Shown: positions 1,667-48,666 of the stretch, one piece after another
Layout of the letters: the number at the start of each line of letters is the position of its first letter
How positions within the stretch are numbered: position 1 is the stretch's first letter
NCBI GenBank assembly: GCA_015489595.1
Contig: WFZK01000010.1
Location: 1 to 57,471 of the forward strand
Origin: Candidatus Dojkabacteria bacterium
Lineage (GTDB): Bacteria > Patescibacteriota > Dojkabacteria > GCA-002793355
Direction of reading: 5' to 3'
DNA: 57,471 nucleotides
Program-made: the position numbers and the translations under genes
Notes under the pieces: model-generated
Told to the model about the DNA's origin: nothing
The model's input: only the letters and a program-made list of their open reading frames with translations
The model's database searches: none

Positions 1667-3721
1667 ATGAATCTAGTATTAGTAGAGTCACCAGCTAAGG
1701 CGAAAACCATTGAAAAGATTTTAGGGAAGGGTTATAAGGTGGTCGCTACCTTGGGGCACTTGATCGATTTGCCTAAAAGTAAGCTAGGAGTTGACCTTAC
1801 GACATTTGAACCCGAGTATGTCCCTATTAAAGGTAAAGGAAAGTTAATAAGATTTATTAAGCAGCAGGTAAAAGGTGCCTCTTTGGTGTTGCTGGCCCAA
1901 GATCCAGATAGAGAGGGAGAGGCTATAGCTTGGCAGGTACTAAAACTTACAGAACTTCCTGAAGATTCTTATAAGAGGATAGTATTTCATGAAATTACAA
2001 GAGATGCCATAAGGAAAGCAGTAGAGCAGGGGAGACGTATTGATCTTAACTTAGTGCAGGCCCAGCAAGCCAGACGGGTTTTAGATCGGCTTGTAGGGTA
2101 CCCCCTCTCGGAGCTTCTGTGGCACAAGATTAGATATGGCCTTTCAGCGGGTAGAGTTCAATCAGCGGCATTAAGGTTAATAGTGGAACGTCAAGAGAAG
2201 ATTGACGCTTTTGAGCCTGAAGTCTATCTGACAGTCGTTGCCAAAACCTCGCTGGGAGATTTTCTCTTATCTTCTTCTAAGGATCTCAAACCTCTGAGGT
2301 TTCCTGAAGACAAGAGGCAATCTCTTTTAGAAAAGATAGAGCATCTTCGTACACTTAAGGTTGTGGGATTAGGACGGTCTGAGGCTGTGGTTACCCCTCC
2401 GCCTCCCCTGATTACATCGTCCCTCCAGCAAGAGGCTAATAGAAGATTTGGATTTTCTGCAAAAACTACGATGCGTCTTGCCCAGGAGCTATATCAGGGC
2501 TTGGATATCCCTGGGATCGGAAGACGCTCTCTGATCACATACATGCGTACTGATTCCGTAAGGCTTAGCAATTACGCTATTTCCGAGAGTAGAAAATTTA
2601 TAGAACATCTTTTCGGAAGGGAGCTTCTAAATCCTACAGTACGTAGATACAAGACACGGTCTAAGAATGCTCAAGAGGCACATGAGGCTATCAGGCCGGT
2701 CCACTTTGATCTCTCCCCAGATGTACTTAAAGATAAATTAAGCAAGCCGCATTGGTTAATTTACAATCTGGTCTGGGAGAGAACTATCGCTACTCAGATG
2801 AAGCCGGCTCTTTACGATGTGTATACGATTCATGCTAATCCTGAGATCCTAGATGGAATTTGGATACTTAAAAGGAGGTTTTTAAAAGAACCTGGTTTTT
2901 TAATCTTAGCGGGGAAGACGAAAGAGGAAGAAGGAGCTTTTAAAGGTCTGTCAGAAGGTACAGAGGTCACTGTTAATGAGGTAGGAGTGGTGGAGAAGCA
3001 AACATCTCCTCCACACCCCTACACAGATGCGTCTTTGGTTAAAACCTTAGAAAAACTTGGTATAGGCCGTCCTTCTACGTTTGCTACTATTATTGATACC
3101 CTCCTTAAGCGAGGGTATGTGCAAAGAGAAGGTAGATTTTTGATCCCTACTGATAATGGGAAAGTGGTAGCTGATTTCCTAAAGAAACATTTCCCAGAGA
3201 TTGTGGATTATGAGTTTACGGCTAATATGGAGGATAGTCTCGACAAGATCGCGCGAGGGGAGCTTTCAAAGGAGGGGTTCTTAAAGAATTTTTATCCGAC
3301 ATTCATTGAGAAGGTAGAAAAAAAGGAGAAAGAGGTTAACAAAAGCGATGTTGTAGTGCTGGAGAAGACTAATGTAAAGTGCCCTAAATGTGGTGCTGAT
3401 ATGGTACTCAAGCTGGGTAAATTTGGGAAGTTTTACAGCTGCAGTAGGTATCCCGAGTGTGATGGCATGTTAAGTTACATTGATGAGAATAGGTATGAGA
3501 TCCCTCCAGAGGCCAAAAAGGGAGAGTGGGTTCTTAAGGTGGGTAAATATGGTCGTTTTTGGGCGCATAAAGATTATCCTAAGATAAAACAAACAGCGCC
3601 ATTGTTATTAAAAGAAAAGTGCCCTAAGTGTGGGAGTCCTCTGATAGAGAGGAGGGGTAAGAATGGTCGCCTATTTATAGGGTGTTCTAATTATCCTAAG
3701 TGCAAGTTTATTAAAAGATAA
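1667..3721 (+). CDS. topA: DNA topoisomerase I
   Basis: Toprim N-terminus MNLVLVESPAKAKTIEKILG, the TYMRTDS active-site Tyr region, and three C-terminal CxxC...C zinc ribbons. Confidence 0.95.
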   Translation: MNLVLVESPAKAKTIEKILGKGYKVVATLGHLIDLPKSKLGVDLTTFEPEYVPIKGKGKLIRFIKQQVKGASLVLLAQDPDREGEAIAWQVLKLTELPEDSYKRIVFHEITRDAIRKAVEQGRRIDLNLVQAQQARRVLDRLVGYPLSELLWHKIRYGLSAGRVQSAALRLIVERQEKIDAFEPEVYLTVVAKTSLGDFLLSSSKDLKPLRFPEDKRQSLLEKIEHLRTLKVVGLGRSEAVVTPPPPLITSSLQQEANRRFGFSAKTTMRLAQELYQGLDIPGIGRRSLITYMRTDSVRLSNYAISESRKFIEHLFGRELLNPTVRRYKTRSKNAQEAHEAIRPVHFDLSPDVLKDKLSKPHWLIYNLVWERTIATQMKPALYDVYTIHANPEILDGIWILKRRFLKEPGFLILAGKTKEEEGAFKGLSEGTEVTVNEVGVVEKQTSPPHPYTDASLVKTLEKLGIGRPSTFATIIDTLLKRGYVQREGRFLIPTDNGKVVADFLKKHFPEIVDYEFTANMEDSLDKIARGELSKEGFLKNFYPTFIEKVEKKEKEVNKSDVVVLEKTNVKCPKCGADMVLKLGKFGKFYSCSRYPECDGMLSYIDENRYEIPPEAKKGEWVLKVGKYGRFWAHKDYPKIKQTAPLLLKEKCPKCGSPLIERRGKNGRLFIGCSNYPKCKFIKR

Positions 3722-3723
3722 AA

Positions 3724-4368
3724 ATGCTTCCTCGCGAAAAAGCGAAGTTATTAGGAATTCAGAATTTAAGCTACGAGGAGCTTTTTGCTCTTATTATCGG
3801 TCAAGGAAGTAGGAAAGAGAGTGTTTTTCAACTGGCTAAGCGCCTTACCAGAGTTTTTAGAAAGAGAGGATTTAGTTTTTGTGCGGAAAATATCTTAAAG
3901 CACGAATGTAGTCTTTTAGAGGGGGTTGGCGAGGCTACGCGTCTTAGGATTAGCGCAGTGTTCGAACTGATGCTGCGTGTGTGTCAGACTGAAAATCAGT
4001 TCCGCATCACTTCGACCACAGATGTGTTAAAGATGATGCACAGCCTTGTTCGTAAGAAAAAAGAATATGTTTATGCATTATATCTTGATTCTAGTCGTAG
4101 GCTTCTGTCTAAAAAACTGCTTGCCCTTGGCGGGATTGATTTTGTTAATTTGGATTTGAGATCTCTCTTTTCACACGCGTTAGTAAAGGGGGCTACAGGT
4201 ATTATTTTAGTGCATAATCATCCATCTGGAGAGGCAAACCCTAGCAAGGCTGATTTGGTAGTTACTGAGAGGGTAATAAATGCGGGTAAGATTTTAGGTA
4301 TAGAACTAATTGATCATATAATTCTTGCCAGGGGCGGGTATTTTAGCTTCTCAGAGAGTATGTTATAA
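3724..4368 (+). CDS. radC: RadC-like JAB domain protein
   Basis: Intact JAMM motif HNHPSGEANPSKAD near the C-terminus, with an N-terminal HhH-like region. Confidence 0.85.
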   Translation: MLPREKAKLLGIQNLSYEELFALIIGQGSRKESVFQLAKRLTRVFRKRGFSFCAENILKHECSLLEGVGEATRLRISAVFELMLRVCQTENQFRITSTTDVLKMMHSLVRKKKEYVYALYLDSSRRLLSKKLLALGGIDFVNLDLRSLFSHALVKGATGIILVHNHPSGEANPSKADLVVTERVINAGKILGIELIDHIILARGGYFSFSESML

Positions 4369-10811: not shown

Positions 10812-10943
10812 AGACGCCTGAGTTAAAGGTGGCGCAGGGTTCATGTAACTATTTTTCAGAAAGAGGGGATTACACAGTAGGGCATAGAGAAAGTCTGAAG
10901 GGTGGTTTTGTCGTATGCTAAAAACAGTAAAAAGGTCTAATCC

Positions 10944-10980
10944 GCGTGGGAAGGGGTAAAATGGCTTACCCTTCCCACGC
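10944..10980. terminator. Hairpin between convergent hpf and the SurA-like gene (type-1 repeat relative), likely a bidirectional terminator
   Basis: GCGTGGGAAGGG(g)TAA / TTACCCTTCCCACGC with one bulge, followed by T-rich CTTTAGTATTTTATTTCTTTTT on the + strand. Confidence 0.5.
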
Positions 10981-15094: not shown

Positions 15095-15139
15095 CGGGCG
15101 GGGGCAAAATGTGGGGATACCACATTTTGCCCCCGCCCG
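15095..15139. repeat. Type-1 palindromic repeat (20 bp perfect stem, 5 nt loop)
   Basis: CGGGCGGGGGCAAAATGTGG-ggata-CCACATTTTGCCCCCGCCCG. Confidence 0.9.
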
Positions 15140-15229
15140 CAAAGTAACTTCCTTTTTCACAGTACTGCAGAGTCATCTACCAGCAGGATAATTCAAAACG
15201 GTTATGGGAATCAATTCTAGAAGGTTTAC

Positions 15230-15257
15230 GCAAAAATCGAAGAAAGCCGATTTTTGC
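15230..15257. repeat. Type-2 palindromic repeat, short copy (10 bp stem)
   Basis: GCAAAAATCG-aagaaagc-CGATTTTTGC. Confidence 0.7.
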
Positions 15258-15309
15258 CCGCGTCTCCTAAACGTGACATTCTTAATTTGGCTCGCGTTTA
15301 AGTAGAGAT

Positions 15310-16236
15310 TTATAAATGGGCGGTCTTTTTTGACTTTACTGCTCTGTAAAGGTTAGACACCAAGAAAAGGTGTAGTTTGCCTTGTTTTAGGGCTTCCTGT
15401 GCGTTAGATTGTTTTATACGCTCCCTATGATCTTTGATCTGATCCAGGGTTAGGTCGTAGGTCCTTATAATACTTTGATTTCGGGTGGCTCTTATTCTCT
15501 CTAGGGTTTTTTGTTGGGATAGTTGGGCATGTTGATAGAGTTTGGCTTTAAGGAGTTCTAAAGCGGTTTGTCTGTTTTGGTGTTGGCTTCTGTATTTACT
15601 GCTTTTTACTATTATCCCTGTGGGTTTGTGTTTCACTATGACAGCTGTTTCCGTTTTGTTTGTGTATTGGCCGCCAGGGCCTGAGGCCCTGGCGGCCTTA
15701 ATTTCCAGATCAGTCGGATTGATGTTTACGGACTCTGTCTTTATAGCTGGCAGAACTAAGACTTCGGCGTTTGAGGTGTGAACCTTTTTGTCTTTGGAGA
15801 AAGGACTGATCCTTTCCAGTCTATGACTTCCCTCTTCTTCTTTAAAGATTAGATACGCTGCGGGATCGTTGATTTTTAGAGTGCCACCTGTTATTCCGGC
15901 TGTGGGGTCGTAGGAGATATCTATTATTTCAAAAGGGACGTTTAAATTTTCCAGCGCTTTAATATAGCTCTTAAATAGCATAAGAGTAAAATCTTTTGCA
16001 TCTAGTCCACCTTGTCCTGGATGTATTTCAAGATAGGCCTGCTGTGGTTTTTCAATATTATGTGTAAAAAATTTAATGAGGGAGCTTTTTGCTAGATTCT
16101 CGTATTCTTCCGGGAATTGGGATTTGTACTCCTCAGCTTCTTTGATAAGTTCAATAACCTTAGAAAGATTATAAAGCTCTCCTAGCTCTAGAAGTTTTTT
16201 AAGGGTCATTTTTTCAATAAGTGAGTGGATAAGCAT
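15310..16236 (-). CDS. prfB: Peptide chain release factor 2 (short N-terminal domain, no frameshift site)
   Basis: SPF tripeptide (ERISPFS) and GGQ motif (RASGPGGQYTNKTETAV). Confidence 0.9.
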   Translation of the reverse strand: MLIHSLIEKMTLKKLLELGELYNLSKVIELIKEAEEYKSQFPEEYENLAKSSLIKFFTHNIEKPQQAYLEIHPGQGGLDAKDFTLMLFKSYIKALENLNVPFEIIDISYDPTAGITGGTLKINDPAAYLIFKEEEGSHRLERISPFSKDKKVHTSNAEVLVLPAIKTESVNINPTDLEIKAARASGPGGQYTNKTETAVIVKHKPTGIIVKSSKYRSQHQNRQTALELLKAKLYQHAQLSQQKTLERIRATRNQSIIRTYDLTLDQIKDHRERIKQSNAQEALKQGKLHLFLVSNLYRAVKSKKTAHL

Positions 16237-17531: not shown

Positions 17532-17719
17532 TTAGGATGGATTACAGGGGTATTCCTCTCTAGGGTGTGGATTCATAGTGGGTTGAAAGGGTGTGGGGCA
17601 AAATATCTCAATACCGCATCCCCTCTTCGCCAAAGTGGGTTGATTTTTGTAGTACTGGAAAGCTGCCTGCCGATAGAAAGATTTAAACCACCAGAAGGAT
17701 AACAATCAAGGGAGCTGGG

Positions 17720-17745
17720 GCAAAATCGTCTTTTTCGATTTTTGC
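17720..17745. repeat. Type-2 palindromic repeat, weak copy (9 bp stem with one bulged T)
   Basis: GCAAAATCG-tcttttt-CGATTTTTGC. A degenerate type-1 copy, GTGTGGGGCAAAATATC..., lies at 17591-17625. Confidence 0.55.
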
Positions 17746-17760
17746 GTGTTCCCTAGGGTG

Positions 17761-19146: not shown

Positions 19147-19185
19147 ATGTAAGAATTTTGTAAGATTTTAAAGGTAGAATTAAAT

Positions 19186-19905
19186 ATGGCTGGCGGAATG
19201 TTAGGGGTCGCAGCTGTGGTAGAGGATAACGTTTCTTTTCAGAAGGCTGTTGTTTCCTATTTAAAAGGTCACGGTTTTTCTGAAGTGTACGGTTTTACGT
19301 ATGGCCGAGAATTTCTTGAGTTTTTCAGAGGGAGGGCAGATGATCTTGGGTTTGTTTTACTTGATATGCTCCTTCCTGATATCTTTGGACACGATATACT
19401 TACTATTATCCGTAACCGCAGAGAATATTTACCTGTCATGATTATTACAGCCTATTTTGAAGAGAAGTTCTATCGTTCCTCATTTAATAGAGGTGTAGAT
19501 TATTTCTTACCTAAGCCTACAAGTGTTCTCTCCCTAGGGAGCGCGGTAAGAAGATTGTTGGACTTAGTTTATGGCCCCAAGGATCGAAAACCTAAAACAG
19601 TTTTAGGGGAGAGGTTCCAGTTTGTTAAAGAGTCTAGGGCTCTCGTCGACTTGAAGGCAAAACGCCAGGTTTATCTAACACCTAAGGAAACGTTGGTCTT
19701 TAGAACTCTTCTACGATATGGTAATAGTGTAGTCCCTTACGCGTTGTTTACTCTAGGTAGGAAGAAGTTGAATAAGAATACTCTTCAGGTATTGGTATTC
19801 AGATTGAATAGTAAACTTAAGAGATTTACTAGAAACAGAATTACTGTAAAGGCAGTTTATGGGGGAGGATATAGGTTGCTTGTAAAGGATGATTCAGATT
19901 CGTAG
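19186..19905 (+). CDS. OmpR/PhoB-family response regulator
   Basis: Receiver domain (VVEDN, VLLDMLLPD, YFLPKP) plus a winged-helix output domain (LTPKETLVFRTLL...VYGGGYRL). Confidence 0.8.
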   Translation: MAGGMLGVAAVVEDNVSFQKAVVSYLKGHGFSEVYGFTYGREFLEFFRGRADDLGFVLLDMLLPDIFGHDILTIIRNRREYLPVMIITAYFEEKFYRSSFNRGVDYFLPKPTSVLSLGSAVRRLLDLVYGPKDRKPKTVLGERFQFVKESRALVDLKAKRQVYLTPKETLVFRTLLRYGNSVVPYALFTLGRKKLNKNTLQVLVFRLNSKLKRFTRNRITVKAVYGGGYRLLVKDDSDS

Positions 19906-20041
19906 CGGGATGAACAATACACCGAAGGGGATAAATATGGAGAAATCTAAGGGGTCTAAGACTATAAAGTCGAGGATTGTTGGCATAACTTATAGTTAGG
20001 GTTTTGGGATGATGAAGTGTAAAAATTATGTAAGATTCTGG

Positions 20042-20050
20042 TGGTATAGT
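20042..20050 (+). promoter_or_regulatory. Extended -10 (TGgTATAGT) followed by AGAAT-ATG (ATG at 20056)
   Basis: Read directly. The ATG at 20056 opens only a 21-codon frame, and the kinase frame opens at TTG 20069. Confidence 0.4.
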
Positions 20051-20068
20051 AGAATATGCGGGGGTTAA

Positions 20069-21250
20069 TTGAGTGGTTGGTCCGTGTACTTACGAGAGGT
20101 GCCCTCCCCTGGGGAGATTAGGGGAGGGAGAAAATCGTTTAGGGTAGGTGCGGCTGCTGTTACAGCAGCCGCACTGTATGTTATTTTCAGATCTCTTGGG
20201 AATAACTCTCTAATAGGCTATCAAATGTGGGTAGCGCGGGGAGTAGCTGCTTTGGCCATTCTTGTAGCAGGATTGGGGTTGCTTTACACAGGAATAAAAG
20301 TACATAGAGACTCCGTTGATCTAGGGAGGGCTCTCTTGTTTATTCTCTCTTTAATAGCGTGGCTAGGTAGCCTGACTATTGTGGTGTGCTGGGGACCTAT
20401 CGTCCCCTTACAGTATCCACTTTACATTATCGCCATATCAAGCATGTGGTTTAGCGGTAGATGGAGGTATCAGCAGGTTCAGCTAATGAGTTATATCCTA
20501 CTCTATCTATTCGCCGCTGTGAATATGGTACCATTGTGTGGAGCAGGACTCCCTCCTCTGGATGTCAACAACCGGGTTGTAACGAGTTTCTTAATGATAG
20601 CTATCAGTTTGTGGCTGCTATACACATCTGTTAAAGTGAGAATATCGACTCTCTTAGAGGATGAAGCAGTTTTAGACCTTACTATTTTCGGAGCCACCTC
20701 GTATTTGCTGATGCATACTCTTAAAAACTCTCTTATTGGTATTAAACATCGGCTGGAGCCTTGCATGAAGAGGGTAAAGGAACTTAAGCAGCTGTTTTTG
20801 ACAATAGATCTTTTATTTGATCGAGGCTCATCTCGTACCGCGAGTGGCTATTTAAAGGACCTTTTGCAGGTGGTAGGTGACTTTGCAAGTAAGCGGAGTG
20901 TGGCCTTGAGCTCTAAAATTGCAAAAATAGGGGCGAAGTTAGGCTATAGTCAAAGGTTAGTGTTAGTAAGTATTGTCCACAACTTGCTCTACAATGCTAT
21001 ATTGGCTAGTCCTGTTAAAGGGAGGGTGAGTTTTAGGGCTTTTTCAGTTCAGGATCGTTTGCAGCTTTCAGTATGCAACAAGGGGACGTGTCCTACCTTT
21101 TGGGAGTCGTACGGCAAGAAATTGCTGCGCGGCCTGTTTGTATCTGATGTACTGCTGTCCATAAAAGGTAAAGGAAGATTGGCACACAGCTGTAGTAAAG
21201 ATCGTGTCTATAGTGAGCTAACTTTAAACTTGAAGAAAGATGATAAATAG
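20069..21250 (+). CDS. Membrane sensor histidine-kinase-like protein (degenerate ATP-binding boxes; start uncertain)
   Basis: About 6 TM helices, H-box-like MHTLKNSLIGI and N-box-like IVHNLLYNAI. I saw no clear DxGxG or GxGxG. The TTG start is taken from the ORF track. Confidence 0.55.
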   Translation: MSGWSVYLREVPSPGEIRGGRKSFRVGAAAVTAAALYVIFRSLGNNSLIGYQMWVARGVAALAILVAGLGLLYTGIKVHRDSVDLGRALLFILSLIAWLGSLTIVVCWGPIVPLQYPLYIIAISSMWFSGRWRYQQVQLMSYILLYLFAAVNMVPLCGAGLPPLDVNNRVVTSFLMIAISLWLLYTSVKVRISTLLEDEAVLDLTIFGATSYLLMHTLKNSLIGIKHRLEPCMKRVKELKQLFLTIDLLFDRGSSRTASGYLKDLLQVVGDFASKRSVALSSKIAKIGAKLGYSQRLVLVSIVHNLLYNAILASPVKGRVSFRAFSVQDRLQLSVCNKGTCPTFWESYGKKLLRGLFVSDVLLSIKGKGRLAHSCSKDRVYSELTLNLKKDDK

Positions 21251-21845: not shown

Positions 21846-22027
21846 GGGGTACAGACAAAACTTCGTAGGCTAACCTGCCCTGGGAGATTGGTTAATAAGA
21901 GAAGACAAGGAGGGTATTACAGCGCAGAAGTTGAGCCCCCTAAGCTTATTATTCTTCTGGCTGTTTTACATTTCCCCGTTGTTTGTGAACGATTTTTCGC
22001 TATTCCGCGTAAGGCAACCTACTTTAG

Positions 22028-22070
22028 GGCGTGGGGTAAAATGTGTCATTACCACATTTTGCCCCACGCC
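22028..22070. repeat. Type-1 palindromic repeat (18 bp stem including one T.G pair)
   Basis: GGCGTGGGGTAAAATGTG-tcattac-CACATTTTGCCCCACGCC. Confidence 0.9.
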
Positions 22071-22079
22071 AGTCATTAC

Positions 22080-24341: not shown

Positions 24342-24505
24342 ATTCTATTATCTCTGAGCTTTCTTACAAAATTTTTGCAGTAGGGATGGGGGAACTGTAT
24401 TTTTATGGTAGTGGTCGGCGGTACGCTAGCAGGATAATTAAGCACAGACAATAGAGGGGGATTTTAGGGGGTATGTCAAAGCCGGTTTTTACGGTTTTAT
24501 CTAAG

Positions 24506-24560
24506 CTTAGGGGCGTGGGACAAAATGTCCTATTAACACGTTTTGCCCCACGCCCCTAAG
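24506..24560. repeat. Type-1 palindromic repeat (about 22 bp stem, one A/C mismatch, one T.G pair)
   Basis: CTTAGGGGCGTGGGACAAAATGT...ACACGTTTTGCCCCACGCCCCTAAG. Confidence 0.9.
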
Positions 24561-24589
24561 TTGACAGTTAAGCTTAGCCTTATTATCAT
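24561..24589 (+). promoter_or_regulatory. Promoter TTGACA, 17 nt, TATCAT; the ATG lies 5 nt after the -10 (leaderless geometry)
   Basis: The -35 abuts the last base of hairpin 24506-24560. ATG at 24595. Confidence 0.6.
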
Positions 24590-32558: not shown

Positions 32559-34340
32559 ATGCAGGTATATAGGCGGAGGGTCAAAGGTGTTTTATTCTTT
32601 ATTTTCTTGGTACTCATCTTGGTGGCAATTTTTCTAGTCCCCGTTCTTATTAAGTTTTTTTCTCAGGCTGGACTTGCAGAACCTCAGGCTTTGGTTTTGG
32701 GGAATCTATCCCCTACAAGTGTCACGATCGTGTGGTTTACTAAAGATCCAGCCCAAGGTGATGTAATATGGGGAGTTACTAAGGATTTGGGACAGGTAGC
32801 ACATGATATGCGTAAAAGTCTTATCAACAACTTTGGGGAAACCTTTACTCATGTTGTTAAGTTAGATAACTTAGTCCCTGGCACTTCATACTATTTTAGG
32901 GTTGTCACTAATGGTAAAGTGTATCCTCCGGAGAAAGAGGCGCCGTACCTGTTCCAAACCCCATCAGTTGAAGCTCAGCAGTTGAGTTCACCCCTTAAGA
33001 TGTTTGGAGAAGTTGCAGGGGGGAGCTATGATTATGTAGTTGTGGTGGCTCCTATAGGTTCAAAAGTATACCCTTTTATCGCCCCTGTAACTCCGGATGG
33101 GACGTGGTATGTTGATGTATCGAGTTCTTACACGTATCAGGATTTAAAATCAGTGGTTTTTGATCAAAGTGCAAAGTTTAATGTGTTTGCTTTAGGTAAG
33201 GTGGGGGATTTTAAAGGTGGGGTAACTACAGCATCTTCACCTATTAAGTTAAACCCCAGTACAACTTATACAGCCTCTTCGATGCTTTCAGCATTAGGAC
33301 TTCCCAAAGTGCAGCGTTCTGCTGGAGGCAGCCAGAATATAGCCCAGGCTCCTTCAGGGACGGAAAAGATTACCCCTTCTCCCTCTAAAAAAGCTCCAGT
33401 GGCGGCTTCTCCTGGTGCTCCTAGTCCTACTCCTACGGCTACAGTTTCTCCTTCAGTCACTGGTGAAAGTCAGGGGCAAACTCCATCTATTACAGAGATT
33501 CCTCCCTCGGGGTTTATCCCTACCGGGCTTACCCCTACACCTACAGAGAATACACAGGAGAGTGTACCATCTCAGACTCCTACTTCATCTCCAGAAGAAA
33601 GCAAGCAGCAATCAGGATCTTCTTCATTTAGAGCTAATATCTATGGTCTTAAGCTAAGATTTATCTCGCCTTCAGATGTGCGTCAGGACCTTAAATTGGC
33701 TACAGATCAAATAAGACAAACAGAGAAGAAGGTTAATAACAATCATCTCACTACTGAGCAGAAAGTCAAATTTGGAGACGAGTTATCCTATCCTTTGGTT
33801 GTGAATGTTTCTGAGAGTTCCGCTACTATAATATGGAGGACAGTAGACAGAGTCTCCACACATCTAGAGCTCCTCAGCGATGGTAAAACACAAACTTTTG
33901 ATGATGAACGAGGAGAAGGGAATTTTTATTTTCATGTAGTAAGGTTAAGATACCTAACGCCAGGTAAGCAATACAAGTATAGAATTGGCGACTCCGAATT
34001 TACTTTTACAGCACCTCAGACGCTTAAGACTCCTCCATCGTTGCTTAACCTCTCCGGGATAGTCTCAGGACAAGGTGATGAGTGTTTAGTCCTGGCTCAA
34101 GTTAAGAGAGATACTACCAAGTCAGCCCTTGGGGGGCTTTTAACAACGGCTAACGTTGCTTGGTCTCTCGATATTGGAGCTTTAAGAACCGTAGACTATT
34201 TAAAATATTTTGACCCTAAGGATACTGATTACGTAGAACTCTCTGTCTATTGCGTAGATAGTTCCGGAAAACTATATAAAGGCAATGTGAGTAAACAGGT
34301 AGGAGAGGTAAAAGATATTCAAGTTGTGATAGAGTTGTAG
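32559..34340 (+). CDS. Secreted/anchored protein with two FN3 (purple-acid-phosphatase-N-like) domains and a Ser/Thr/Pro-rich linker
   Basis: N-terminal TM anchor. LSPTSVTIVWFT...GTSYYFRV and VSESSATIIWRT...GKQYKYRI. About 90 aa STP-rich region (nt 33348-33623). Confidence 0.55.
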   Translation: MQVYRRRVKGVLFFIFLVLILVAIFLVPVLIKFFSQAGLAEPQALVLGNLSPTSVTIVWFTKDPAQGDVIWGVTKDLGQVAHDMRKSLINNFGETFTHVVKLDNLVPGTSYYFRVVTNGKVYPPEKEAPYLFQTPSVEAQQLSSPLKMFGEVAGGSYDYVVVVAPIGSKVYPFIAPVTPDGTWYVDVSSSYTYQDLKSVVFDQSAKFNVFALGKVGDFKGGVTTASSPIKLNPSTTYTASSMLSALGLPKVQRSAGGSQNIAQAPSGTEKITPSPSKKAPVAASPGAPSPTPTATVSPSVTGESQGQTPSITEIPPSGFIPTGLTPTPTENTQESVPSQTPTSSPEESKQQSGSSSFRANIYGLKLRFISPSDVRQDLKLATDQIRQTEKKVNNNHLTTEQKVKFGDELSYPLVVNVSESSATIIWRTVDRVSTHLELLSDGKTQTFDDERGEGNFYFHVVRLRYLTPGKQYKYRIGDSEFTFTAPQTLKTPPSLLNLSGIVSGQGDECLVLAQVKRDTTKSALGGLLTTANVAWSLDIGALRTVDYLKYFDPKDTDYVELSVYCVDSSGKLYKGNVSKQVGEVKDIQVVIEL

Positions 34341-34341
34341 T

Positions 34342-35103
34342 ATGTTAGGGAGATTGTTGAAAATTGTAGGGGCTTTGGTGGTGGTAGGTGCATGGAATAT
34401 TTTTGGTTTCCCCTCTGTAGCTGCACAGGAAAAATCGATGCCTCTGAAATTTGTGGTAGAGTATGAAGGCGAAGTTAGAGAGGGGCAAACTCTGAAAGTA
34501 TTGATCGGAGTGAAGAATACTTCTTCTGAGCCCGTAGAGTTAGATTCAGCTAGGTTATCTCTTACTATTTCTCCAGAGACGGCAAAGATGCTTAAGGTGA
34601 CGGCGAACACAGAGTTTTTTTGCGATTATCCTACAGACCCGCCTAATTATGTGTCTAACGTAGAGAAAGGGATCCTTATAATCACAGGGAAGGCGACTGG
34701 CACTAAGGATTGTCCTTATCCTAATCTTAAGCCAGGCGAAGTTAAACACATGGTAGAGATTATTCTTAGAGTTAAGAAAGCCCCTATAACTCTGCACTTC
34801 CTGTACGACGGAAGTGCGGAGGCAGGAGATGTAAGTTATGCTATGTTAAAGGGTAGCCCCCCTGTTTTTGCCTTGGCTCCTCCTGAGGATTTTGTTATTG
34901 CCGCAAAGAGTACTCCCACTGTTACAGAGGTTTCTTCTCCCCCCACTCCTAAAGTAGGCAAGCAAGTATACAAAGTCCCCACCACTGTAAGCCGTAAGGA
35001 ATTATTAGCAAGCTTAGCCTTAGGCTTTACTTTGATATTTATAGGTATTAAAATGGTAAAAAGGCGATCTAAAGTCGATGTGGTGATTCATGTTTCTGAT
35101 TAA
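34342..35103 (+). CDS. Secreted protein with signal peptide and C-terminal TM anchor plus basic tail
   Basis: Signal peptide ...FPSVAAQE. C-terminal LLASLALGFTLIFIGIKMVKRRSK. Confidence 0.5.
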   Translation: MLGRLLKIVGALVVVGAWNIFGFPSVAAQEKSMPLKFVVEYEGEVREGQTLKVLIGVKNTSSEPVELDSARLSLTISPETAKMLKVTANTEFFCDYPTDPPNYVSNVEKGILIITGKATGTKDCPYPNLKPGEVKHMVEIILRVKKAPITLHFLYDGSAEAGDVSYAMLKGSPPVFALAPPEDFVIAAKSTPTVTEVSSPPTPKVGKQVYKVPTTVSRKELLASLALGFTLIFIGIKMVKRRSKVDVVIHVSD

Positions 35104-36494: not shown

Positions 36495-37556
36495 ATGGGG
36501 AAAAGAGAAAATATAGTGAAGGTTGTAATTGATTATAGAAGTCTTTTTCATTTAGGTGGGGTTTTGATTGCACTTCTTCTGCTATATAAAACTTATAGGT
36601 TGGTCTTAGGACTATATATAGCTTTTATAATTGCTTCGGTAATAAAACCGTTGATAGACTGGCTCCAGCGTATAACGAAGTTTAAGATTAAGCGGGGGAT
36701 TTTGGCTACCCTAGTCTACGTTCTGATCTTTTTTGGTTTGATAGGTATTTTTACCTCTGTTGTGTCTGGATTTCTATCTCAACTGGTTGCCATGCTCCAA
36801 ATAGTTTCCTATGAAGATAAAATAGATCAGCTTCTTGAGCAGCTTAGGAGTTATCCTCTTTTGGAGAAAGCCTTAGCCGGCGTTGAGCCTGGAGCGGTTA
36901 GTTTGTATCTACAAGATCTTCTTTTAAGGACTGTAAGTCTTAGTAATACTCTCAAAGGAGCACAGAGCCTGGTCGGAGCGATTCCAGGCATTATTTATGT
37001 ATTTTTGGCTTCTTGGTATTTTGTAGTTGACAGAGACAACATCATTGAGAGTTTACTTCTCCCTTTGAGAGATACTCAAGCAACTCAGAGGCTAAGAGAG
37101 TTTATTACCGAGATAGAATTACAGCTAGGCAGATGGGCGGTAGCCCAGGCGTTTTTAATGCTGATTATCGGGGTAGTTACCTATATTGTTTTATTGATTC
37201 TGAGGGTTAGGTATGCCTTGGGGCTTGCGATTGTAGCAGGGTTATTAGAAATTGTACCCACGATAGGTCCTTTAATCTCCGTTATTCCTGCTTTGATTAT
37301 AGCAGCCCTTACTGGTGGCGTAGTGACGGCTGTTTTTGTTCTCGCTGCTTATTTTCTAATTCAGCAATTGGAGAACAGTCTTATTGTTCCTAAGGTAATG
37401 CAACATGCCGTAGGGATTCACCCGCTGGTAGTTATATTAGCTATAGCTGTGGGGCAGACGCTGGCAGGAGTAAGCGGAGCTTTGCTTGCCGTGCCAACTG
37501 TAGTAATAATAAGAATTGCTTTAGGCTTAAGGTCATTTTGGGATCCTAAGTCTTAG
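36495..37556 (+). CDS. AI-2E family transporter (PerM/YhhT-like)
   Basis: Eight-TM pattern and the conserved FLIQQLENSLIVPKVM segment. Confidence 0.8.
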   Translation: MGKRENIVKVVIDYRSLFHLGGVLIALLLLYKTYRLVLGLYIAFIIASVIKPLIDWLQRITKFKIKRGILATLVYVLIFFGLIGIFTSVVSGFLSQLVAMLQIVSYEDKIDQLLEQLRSYPLLEKALAGVEPGAVSLYLQDLLLRTVSLSNTLKGAQSLVGAIPGIIYVFLASWYFVVDRDNIIESLLLPLRDTQATQRLREFITEIELQLGRWAVAQAFLMLIIGVVTYIVLLILRVRYALGLAIVAGLLEIVPTIGPLISVIPALIIAALTGGVVTAVFVLAAYFLIQQLENSLIVPKVMQHAVGIHPLVVILAIAVGQTLAGVSGALLAVPTVVIIRIALGLRSFWDPKS

Positions 37557-37579
37557 CAGAAGTATTTGTAAGTTATTTG

Positions 37580-37620
37580 GGCGTAGGGCAAGTGTGGGAG
37601 CTTGCATTTTGTCTTACGCT
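37580..37620. repeat. Type-1 palindromic repeat, degenerate copy that pairs only if G.T(U) wobbles are allowed
   Basis: GGCGTAGGGCAAG... versus ...CATTTTGTCTTACGCT gives about 13 pairs, four of them G.T on the + strand. Confidence 0.6.
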
Positions 37621-37703
37621 CTAAGATAAGTTTCTTCTCCGTGGTAGTGGGGGTGCCTATCCGTGAGATCATTTAGAGCAGTAAGGAGAAGAGCAATTTT
37701 AAG

Positions 37704-37748
37704 GGGGACTTACGCAAAATCGACGTAGTCGATTTTGCGTAAGTCCCC
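37704..37748. repeat. Type-2 palindromic repeat (21 bp perfect stem, 3 nt loop)
   Basis: GGGGACTTACGCAAAATCGAC-gta-GTCGATTTTGCGTAAGTCCCC. Confidence 0.9.
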
Positions 37749-37755
37749 TTAAAGT

Positions 37756-37784
37756 TTGGCAGTATATTGTCAAAGTGCTAAAAT
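37756..37784 (+). promoter_or_regulatory. hrcA promoter TTGGCA, 17 nt, TAAAAT, overlapping a CIRCE-like inverted repeat (37756-37781)
   Basis: TTGGCAGTA-N8-AAGTGCTAA compared with the CIRCE consensus TTAGCACTC-N9-GAGTGCTAA. ATG 37790 lies 5 nt after the -10. Confidence 0.45.
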
Positions 37785-37789
37785 AATAT

Positions 37790-38569
37790 ATGGCCGCAGA
37801 GAAAAAGGAGATTGACCTTACTCCCAGACAGAAAAAAATTCTAGCTGCTTTAATAAAAGCTGTTATAGAGAGAGGAGAGGACATAAGCTCATTTGACCTA
37901 ATGAAGATAGAGAATTTTGATTTCAGTTCAGCTACCCTTCGGAATGAATTCCTGACACTCTCAAGAAGGGGTTTTCTTATAAAAACCCACTTTGCCTCCG
38001 GGCGTATTCCTACAATTAAGGCCCTCAGGTATTTCATCGAGCGTTTAATGGAAGAAAAAGCCCCCGATTTCTATGAGATGGTAGAGTTGAGTAATAGATT
38101 ATTCAAACAAAGGTTCGACCCACAACAGTTACTGCGCCTAGCCATGAAGGAGCTGTACTCTATGACTACAGCTCCGGTATTTATTTTGTATAACAATATT
38201 GTGCAGTTTTACAGGTTAAGTAGAATTTTACAGGGTAGAAAGAAGATTCAACACAAGCTAAGAGAGAGTTATTTAAATGGATTTGCTAAGCTTTTGGACA
38301 TTATTGAAGATCCTGAATTGTTTGGGTCGATTTTGGCGCGGGAGTTTACTCAGAGTGTTAGGGGGGTGGGAGTTTTCTCTGGGAGTAAGCTGGGGTGGAA
38401 AGAACTAGAGAGTTTCGTATTTGTGTACACCCCTTTTAGGCTATATCCAAGTAAAGATGAAATAGGTTATATTGGAGCATTAGGATATTTGAATCTTAAT
38501 TATCCGGTGGTGGTTCCAGCTGTTAGGGTTATAGGAGAGATGCTTTCTAACCTCTTGCGTGGCTGGTAA
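37790..38569 (+). CDS. hrcA: Heat-inducible transcription repressor HrcA (short form)
   Basis: N-terminal wHTH LTPRQKKILAALIKAVIERGEDISS...SSATLRNEFLTLSRRGFL...HFASGRIPT. Confidence 0.85.
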   Translation: MAAEKKEIDLTPRQKKILAALIKAVIERGEDISSFDLMKIENFDFSSATLRNEFLTLSRRGFLIKTHFASGRIPTIKALRYFIERLMEEKAPDFYEMVELSNRLFKQRFDPQQLLRLAMKELYSMTTAPVFILYNNIVQFYRLSRILQGRKKIQHKLRESYLNGFAKLLDIIEDPELFGSILAREFTQSVRGVGVFSGSKLGWKELESFVFVYTPFRLYPSKDEIGYIGALGYLNLNYPVVVPAVRVIGEMLSNLLRGW

Positions 38570-45979: not shown

Positions 45980-46114
45980 TTTCTATTTTAGCAATACTCT
46001 CTGATGGGTTCATCTCCAGGAGGATTGGGGGATAGAAAGGATACTCAGAACTAACTGATTGAAGTGGGAGCCGTAGGACTTCTAATCAGGACGTAGTTTA
46101 AAGGTTGAGACGAA

Positions 46115-46161
46115 GGGTCGTGGGGCAAAATGCGTCAATCTCGCATTTTGCCCCACGACCC
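46115..46161. repeat. Type-1 palindromic repeat (20 bp perfect stem, 7 nt loop)
   Basis: GGGTCGTGGGGCAAAATGCG-tcaatct-CGCATTTTGCCCCACGACCC. Confidence 0.9.
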
Positions 46162-46170
46162 GAATCCCCC

Positions 46171-48554: not shown

Positions 48555-48583
48555 GTATACTTTGTGTTCGACTTCTTTACAAG

Positions 48584-48637
48584 TTAGGGGGCTGTGCCAA
48601 AAATCGGAAAGTCTCGATTTTTGGCACAGCCCCCTAA
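48584..48637. repeat. Type-2 palindromic repeat (23 bp perfect stem, 8 nt loop)
   Basis: TTAGGGGGCTGTGCCAAAAATCG-gaaagtct-CGATTTTTGGCACAGCCCCCTAA. Confidence 0.9.
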
Positions 48638-48666
48638 TTGCTTTACCTCCCTTTGTTTATCATCCC

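Follow-up and report, generated by a model that had tools for sequence, protein, structure and literature searches.

The transporter locus and its repeat copy

An AI-2E-family transporter gene (36495-37556, + strand) and an unassigned gene (37790-38569, + strand) flank a repeat copy that begins at 37575 and is built of three parts, a decayed type-1 hairpin (37579-37621), a body of subfamily B (37622-37698), and a 26-bp type-2 hairpin (37699-37753). The four G·U pairs that an earlier note on this DNA placed in the type-1 hairpin at 37580-37620 are real, and the hairpin folds on the + strand only. Positions 37756-37795 contain TTGGCA-17 nt-TAAAAT, with the ATG of the downstream gene 6-7 nt further on. 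In its letters this arrangement looks like a leaderless promoter, one that would begin 3 nt past the type-2 hairpin.

The window, the whole stretch of 57,471 nt analysed here, is the entire contig C10 of an assembly of 825 kb in 47 contigs (~42% G+C, 93.5% complete). The modest genome size and the genes it contains point to a Patescibacteria-like organism. A hairpin scan of this genome yields two palindrome families, with stems of 18-29 bp, hairpins of 43-60 bp, and loops that range from 1 to 11 nt.

Type-1 palindrome: (TTA)GGGCGTGGGGCAAAATGTG-loop-CACATTTTGCCCCACGCCC(TAA), core GGGGCAAAATG..CATTTTGCCCC
Type-2 palindrome: (TA)GGGGCTCACGCAAAAATCGA-CTTTT-TCGATTTTTGCGTGAGCCCC(TA), core GCAAAAATCG..CGATTTTTGC

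A modular repeat family across the genome

Genome-wide, 38 neighbouring type-1/type-2 pairs are separated by a core-to-core gap of 94-107 nt, and the bodies between the paired hairpins, when oriented from type-1 to type-2, are alignable over their full length. These pairs bear out the proposal of the earlier note that the palindromes sit within an ordered module of ~150-190 nt. The module consists of a type-1 hairpin, a linker of ~80 nt (the 'body'), and a type-2 hairpin, ~180 bp in total. An nhmmer profile of 185 positions, made from 37 hairpin pairs and run on the 825-kb genome, identifies 161 non-overlapping loci, nearly all of them intergenic, in six forms.

Full module: 59 of 161 loci
Body and type-2 hairpin: 40 of 161 loci
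Solo type-2 hairpin: 38 of 161 loci
Solo type-1 hairpin: 10 of 161 loci
Type-1 hairpin and body: 9 of 161 loci
Body only: 5 of 161 loci

With 161 loci, a fixed spacing, and co-inheritance of hairpins and body (see below), the module structure is better supported than the earlier note could see. The family spans 19.7 kb, equivalent to 2.4% of the genome and 28% of its intergenic bases, and about half of the spacers of at least 150 bp (93 of 188) hold a copy. The repeat tolerates all kinds of intergenic context: a copy is present in 14% of the spacers between co-directional genes, in 22% of those between convergent genes, and in 20% of those between divergent genes. Modules are additionally joined head-to-head and tail-to-tail in arrays, both type-2/type-1/type-2 and type-1/type-2/type-1, in which one palindrome is common to two modules.

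Contig C19, 22917-23231: shared-palindrome array, type-2/type-1/type-2
Contig C26, 35983-36296: shared-palindrome array, type-2/type-1/type-2
Contig C25, 1223-1539: shared-palindrome array

The repeat family also creates false ORFs and probably breaks assemblies.

Within the window, the profile and the hairpin scan locate the following copies.

15095-15268, + strand: full module (inverted repeat I4), gap 99 nt; profile positions 7-182, E 3e-34
17586-17754, + strand: full module; profile positions 5-180, E 2.1e-30, and alignment
21933-22071, - strand: inverted partial module, type-1 hairpin and body; profile positions 8-142, E 1.3e-30
24400-24498, + strand: decayed body and type-2 remnant; profile positions 67-168, E 2.6e-6 with nhmmer filters off
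~24506-24561: type-1 hairpin with a 23-25 bp stem (I3), abutting the decayed copy at 24400-24498; profile positions 4-58, E 1e-13
37575-37753, + strand: full module (inverted repeat I1); profile positions 4-183 (match 37575-37750), E 4.9e-32
46113-46164: solo type-1 hairpin upstream of a tRNA gene (I5); profile positions 5-55
48580-48650: solo type-2 hairpin with a perfect 23-bp stem, upstream of a tRNA gene (I2); profile positions 117-183

The type-2 loops of the window lie within 15230-15257, 17719-17745, 37712-37740, and 48597-48624. The copies at 15095 and 37575, read in the earlier note as type-1 hairpin, body, and type-2 hairpin, are both full modules (nhmmer E 3e-34 and 5e-32). The first of them is antisense to both flanking genes, which are on the - strand, and contains a perfect 20-bp type-1 hairpin (15095-15139), the body, and a type-2 hairpin (15230-15257) with an A-rich loop. 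In the 17586 copy the right arm of the type-1 hairpin has decayed; its type-2 hairpin is at 17719-17745. The module described as inverted near 21930-22070 is matched from 22071 to 21933 on the - strand and combines a type-1 hairpin (22028-22070) with a subfamily-A body, without a type-2 hairpin; it has 84% BLAST identity to a copy on contig C36. The body reported ahead of a type-1 hairpin near 24361-24560 corresponds to the decayed body and type-2 remnant at 24400-24498, after which the type-1 hairpin follows.

The idea of ordered boxes in these spacers is upheld by the family alignment and the profile search, and the homology assignments made for the boxes are in part mistaken. 'TTTTT..AGTAskG' and 'TGGTAGTGG', listed separately, occupy identical alignment columns (a Y-tract, then GGTAG) and therefore make up a single box. 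'CAGCAGGATAA' at 15181 and 'CAGAAGGATAA' at 17692/21949, listed as one box, fall in columns ~92-103 and 111-123, respectively. No profile match (E<=10, filters off) is obtained at the proposed sites 653-668, 20042-20052, and 10873-10885, and TTTGTAAG, also taken for a module box, lies outside the repeat. Searched as written, box 1 has one match in the window; box 2 has two where 0.5 would be expected, and box 3 has three where 0.13 would be.

A separate short repeat, GTAAAAATTTTGTAA(G)ATT.. (family D3), is found upstream of regulator/sensor genes at 620-660, 19149-19189, and 20019-20059. The box sites 653-668 and 20042-20052 belong to this short repeat and not to the module, and the TTTGTAAG at 37565 is probably part of it as well. 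The window also holds other palindromes. At 10944-10980, a perfect 15-bp palindrome similar to GCGTGGGAAGGGGTA..TACCCCTTCCCACGC has the type-1 outer arm GCGTGGG with a different core and no profile match. Perfect G+C-rich palindromes with stems of 13-20 bp, unrelated to type-1 or type-2, lie in long ORFs at 715-757, 15669-15697, and 20148-20174.

Co-descent of hairpins and body

Module bodies fall into two subfamilies.

Subfamily A: ..GCCTTACGCGGGGTAGCGAAAAATCGTCCGTCAACAACGG..
Subfamily B: ..CTTTTTCCATGGTGGTGGGAAGTTGCCTATACGTAGG..

The tip of the type-1 hairpin is ATGTG..CACAT in 19 of 22 subfamily-A copies and ATGCG..CGCAT in 18 of 25 subfamily-B copies (odds ratio 16, p 9e-5), and the type-2 stem variants TAC, TAA, and TTA occur with subfamily-B bodies only. 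Both hairpins thus track the body subfamily, indicating that hairpins and body were copied together as one unit of descent. Divergence from the subfamily consensus is 10-22% in the arms and 20-32% in the bodies. The unpaired fraction of the stems is 11-17%, versus 19-39% expected under independent divergence of the two arms, and substitutions form discrete compensatory stem classes, for example at columns 140/168 (GC 43, CG 26, AT 14). This better-than-independent pairing, together with the compensatory classes, indicates that the hairpins are maintained as palindromes, either through selection on each copy or through multiplication of only those lineages with intact hairpins. Nearest-neighbour identity among bodies is 0.76 at the median and reaches 0.96 at most, a pattern consistent with an old family that has few recent copies.

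Tests for a strand-specific RNA fold

The earlier note regarded the stem imperfections as mostly T·G and suggested selection on a + strand RNA fold. Read on the module strand, stems at least 70% paired contain 21 G·T and 28 A·C mismatches in type-1 hairpins and 49 and 37 in type-2 hairpins, or 70 versus 65 genome-wide. The counts are similarly balanced when the hairpins are oriented by their G-rich strand (72 and 63) or in the mRNA sense (39 and 38). Given this genome-wide symmetry, the run of + strand G·T pairs in the window is a local accident, and the strand-only folding signal is carried wholly by the type-1 hairpin of the 37575 copy.

The body folds no better than expected and has no register-specific helix. 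Relative to dinucleotide shuffles, 92 bodies have mean folding z-scores of -0.5 (+ strand) and -0.1 (- strand); the corresponding values for the 37575 copy are -0.46 and -1.07. RNAalifold consensus folding recovers the two palindromes and no body helix, and a scan of every possible body helix returns just short pyrimidine/purine pairings with many alternative partners. The pyrimidine and purine tracts of subfamily B can form 8-12 contiguous pairs on the + strand with G·U counted as a pair, and the advantage of cognate over non-cognate tracts is slight (7.46 vs 7.13, p 0.03). The pairing is equally good in six registers (0.69-0.75), and at columns 69/120 (TG 18, TA 14, CG 12, CA 10) C has no preference for G over A. 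These two properties point to complementarity of composition, not to a helix. A candidate P1 helix between the tracts, which reaches 12 pairs with G·U in single copies, was rejected on the same grounds, six equal registers and no C-G association.

Other candidate features of the body were similarly set aside. A central mini-hairpin (CCTA..TAGG in subfamily B, CCGT..ACGG in subfamily A) reaches 4 or more Watson-Crick pairs in 35% of the copies compared with 10% of shuffles; it is strand-symmetric, and most of its support comes from one A/B difference, that is, from two ancestral variants. The ATG of a possible small peptide in subfamily B is missing from subfamily A. Inspection by eye of both strands of both subfamily consensuses gave no -35/-10 pair with proper spacing in the body. 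In a search against Rfam, tRNAs alone reach the gathering score, and the matches at E<=1 are generic hairpin matches far below threshold. Copies in divergent spacers (20%) are as frequent as elsewhere, so membership in a 3' UTR is not required. The module, in sum, carries no strand-specific RNA signature.

Orientation relative to genes and promoters

Where both neighbours are co-directional, modules lie in the sense orientation in 44 cases and in the antisense orientation in 23 (p 0.014). The sense:antisense ratio is similar for genes on the leading (32:19) and lagging (12:6) strands, so orientation goes with transcription and not with replication. A replication-strand bias of the IS200/IS605-like kind (66:47) was considered and is gone after accounting for gene direction. 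The type-2 loop, 5-7 nt long, is found in both orientations genome-wide and is T-rich on the mRNA-sense strand (CTTTTT not AAAAAG) in 44 of 57 co-directional contexts, a bias that solo type-2 hairpins share (14:4). Relative to the module, the loop has the reverse orientation in 5 of 10 antisense modules vs 4 of 29 sense modules.

Modules also seem tied to gene starts, 41:8 within a distance of 90 nt, but this stems in part, trivially, from the internal polarity of the module itself, 51:14. Of the 47 type-2 hairpins that could be scored, 39 end 0-17 nt upstream of a -35-like hexamer, a closeness that compaction alone would also give. Function as an intrinsic, Rho-independent terminator was rejected for lack of a U-tract after either hairpin; on the sense strand, just 9-11% of hairpins have four or more T among the six nucleotides that follow. 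The modest polarity of module and loop remains as support for some transcription-related constraint; neither signal appears in the earlier note.

Distribution in relatives and candidate mobilising enzymes

The earlier note had pointed to related genomes as a place to find homologues. BLAST with a well-conserved copy gives no credible match in the 40 relatives searched, of which 10 belong to the same family and 30 to the same class; the single match is 43 nt long at E 6e-4. The nearest homologue of the AI-2E transporter (57% identical, from a genome of 33% G+C) has no module on its contig, and a 100% match to the transporter is the same DNA as the window on a longer scaffold. A scan of JGI metagenome contigs for the type-1 core returns three contigs, none with the module; two have 59% G+C and the third contains an unrelated tandem array. 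On contig Ga0209459_10010569 (42% G+C), positions 480-700 consist of tandem GGGGCAAAACGTCTATGG-like units that have the hairpin core GGGGCAAAA in common, without the module and without further similarity to this genome. The equivalent scan of the genome collection for the type-2 core gives single matches over many phyla, attributable to chance and uninformative. No link of such repeats to Patescibacteria was found in the literature searched.

Searches for an enzyme that might mobilise the module were negative within this assembly. Y1/RAYT (PF01797) has no match in the whole assembly (93.5% complete), in a search whose control recovers the family in 6 of 14 known genomes, and TnpA, TnpB, IS110, and reverse transcriptase were likewise not found. 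The sole transposase signals are DDE_Tnp_1 and rve fragments, none of them flanked by the hairpins. Their location exactly at contig ends points to insertion sequences left unresolved in the assembly.

Contig C22, 9514-10160, and contig C8, 17-265: DDE_Tnp_1 and rve fragments, exactly at contig ends

The flanks of 48 full copies contain neither a target-site duplication nor a shared target motif, and no common sequence extends beyond the hairpins. Two Xer-like tyrosine recombinases, one of 399 aa with a ~150-aa N-terminal extension and one of 292 aa, are encoded next to modules.

Contig C40, ~2640-3840: Xer-like tyrosine recombinase gene; adjoining module at 3902-4069
Contig C8, ~33970-34850: Xer-like tyrosine recombinase gene; adjoining module at 34884-35025

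The presence of a module beside both genes is suggestive, not significant, because about one-fifth of spacers carry a copy.

Proposed spread of the repeat and alternative readings

We favour, at a probability of roughly 60%, the reading that the module, ~180 bp long and non-coding, is an interspersed mosaic repeat specific to this lineage, which has spread at the DNA level and behaves like a selfish element. The module would have multiplied as one DNA unit, in the manner of BIME/REPIN or MITE elements, to ~160 intergenic sites, where copies would have decayed to partial forms (body and type-2, solo hairpins) and fused into palindrome-sharing arrays. Multiplication may have proceeded by copy-and-paste through a trans-acting enzyme that recognised the hairpins and that has been lost or was not assembled. 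Transcription could then have acted as a secondary filter favouring sense-oriented modules and type-2 loops rich in U, likely because long hairpins land in the 3' regions of transcripts, just before the next promoter.

Against this reading stand the negative searches for a mobilising enzyme in the assembly and flanks free of a target-site duplication or conserved target. Host function could instead underlie both the polarity and the extra conservation seen in the hairpins. It is possible, if doubtful, that the host has co-opted the hairpins as transcription-unit boundaries and that selection keeps them rather than merely tolerating them. Long, perfect 3' stems could block read-through, protect 3' ends, or serve a double-strand RNase while insulating the next promoter. 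Such a role would fit the position of type-2 ends just before -35-like hexamers, the polarity of module and loop, including solo hairpins and the more frequent flipping in antisense modules, the better conservation of hairpins than of the body, and the occupation of about half of the longer spacers. However, the hairpins are not followed by a U-tract, divergent spacers hold copies as often as others, a compact genome would place the hairpins near promoters anyway, the internal polarity of the module confounds part of the polarity statistics, and relatives do without the repeat. A bolder form of this idea, which we consider unlikely, is that the repeat is not merely selfish and that type-2 is a directional boundary providing U-tract-free insulation or 3'-end formation in an ultra-small bacterium with few canonical terminators. 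In that case the U-rich sense loop, retained even in antisense modules, and the 0-17 nt distance to the -35 hexamer would reflect the mechanism itself, and the polarity, if functional, would represent an unconventional marking of transcription-unit ends.

The same polarity, with its sense excess and its U-rich type-2 loop in the sense transcript (44:13), is what lends some appeal to a structured RNA, a small RNA or a cis-acting 3' or 5' UTR element made from the + strand with its fold under selection. The G·U-dependent stems of the subfamily-B tracts, their better cognate pairing, and the + strand folding of the decayed type-1 hairpin at 37575 are in line with such an element. It is nonetheless improbable in view of mismatches that are symmetric in all three orientations, bodies that fold much as their shuffles do, tract pairing that is indifferent to register and to G over A, the lack of an Rfam match even at E<=1 beyond generic hairpins, the copies in divergent spacers, and the one-third of copies antisense to flanking genes; on these data, the case for selection on a + strand fold falls away. 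Very improbable, in our analysis, is that a structure-specific protein, for instance a Xer-like tyrosine recombinase, reverse gyrase, or a nucleoid protein, uses the palindromes as DNA sites. BIMEs bind gyrase and IHF, and the core here, two inverted ~11-bp arms round an asymmetric centre of 5-7 nt that occurs in both orientations, could resemble such a site, as could the location of both genomic Xer-like genes directly beside a module. Yet a loop of 1 to 11 nt is unlike a fixed-length spacer, the stems far exceed a recombinase core site, and the two adjacencies do not reach significance.

The genomes of ultra-small Patescibacteria are thought to be streamlined, yet in this one a single repeat family accounts for over a quarter of all intergenic sequence, and the only transposase signals are fragments at contig ends. 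It offers a useful case for the spread and persistence of palindromic repeats in reduced genomes, and the family should be masked before searches for ncRNAs or terminators in this lineage.

Comparison with known repeat families

A BIME-1 element consists of a Y REP, a linker L, and a Z1 REP, and in more than 90% of REPs one end bears GTAG (or CGTC) as an unpaired tag. The present family resembles REP/BIME elements as a set of high-copy, extragenic palindromes of two kinds with a conserved linker and alternating arrays that share palindromes, and also in its subfamilies with complementary stem changes and its patchy distribution across lineages. In place of a general tag, GTAG directly follows the type-1 CCCTAAA foot in subfamily A only, 3' of the palindrome and not 5'; subfamily B has CTAA, GTAA, or GTGG at this position. 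The linker is ~80 nt long and conserved in ~110 copies, and no associated RAYT (Y1/HUH transposase, PF01797) is present in the assembly. REPs are described as short imperfect palindromes of 20-40 bp with stems of 5-13 bp (PMC3733652), whereas the stems of this repeat measure 18-29 bp.

Likeness to MITEs and other modular repeats, among them pneumococcal BOX, RUP, and SPRITE and the Correia elements of Neisseria, lies in a length of 100-200 bp, a non-coding, intergenic, and modular character, and the occurrence of partial and composite copies. In the GGGGC variant, the two hairpins also have mutually inverted outer arms (GGGCGTGGGGCAAAAT / ATTTTTGCCCCAGCCCC), as in MITEs. In contrast to MITEs, the 48 full copies have no target-site duplication or conserved target, the genome has no parent insertion sequence or cognate autonomous element, and each end is a long perfect palindrome. 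PATEs, the palindrome-associated elements derived from IS200/IS605, are similarly short and non-coding with subterminal hairpins at both ends; here TnpA and TnpB are absent from the genome, and orientation follows gene direction (32:19 leading, 12:6 lagging) rather than the replication strand. The repeat works like REP/BIME and MITE families yet fits the strict definition of neither, and it is a separate family. In its organisation, it is closest to BIME-1-type mosaics, REPINs, and transposase-less modular repeats such as BOX.
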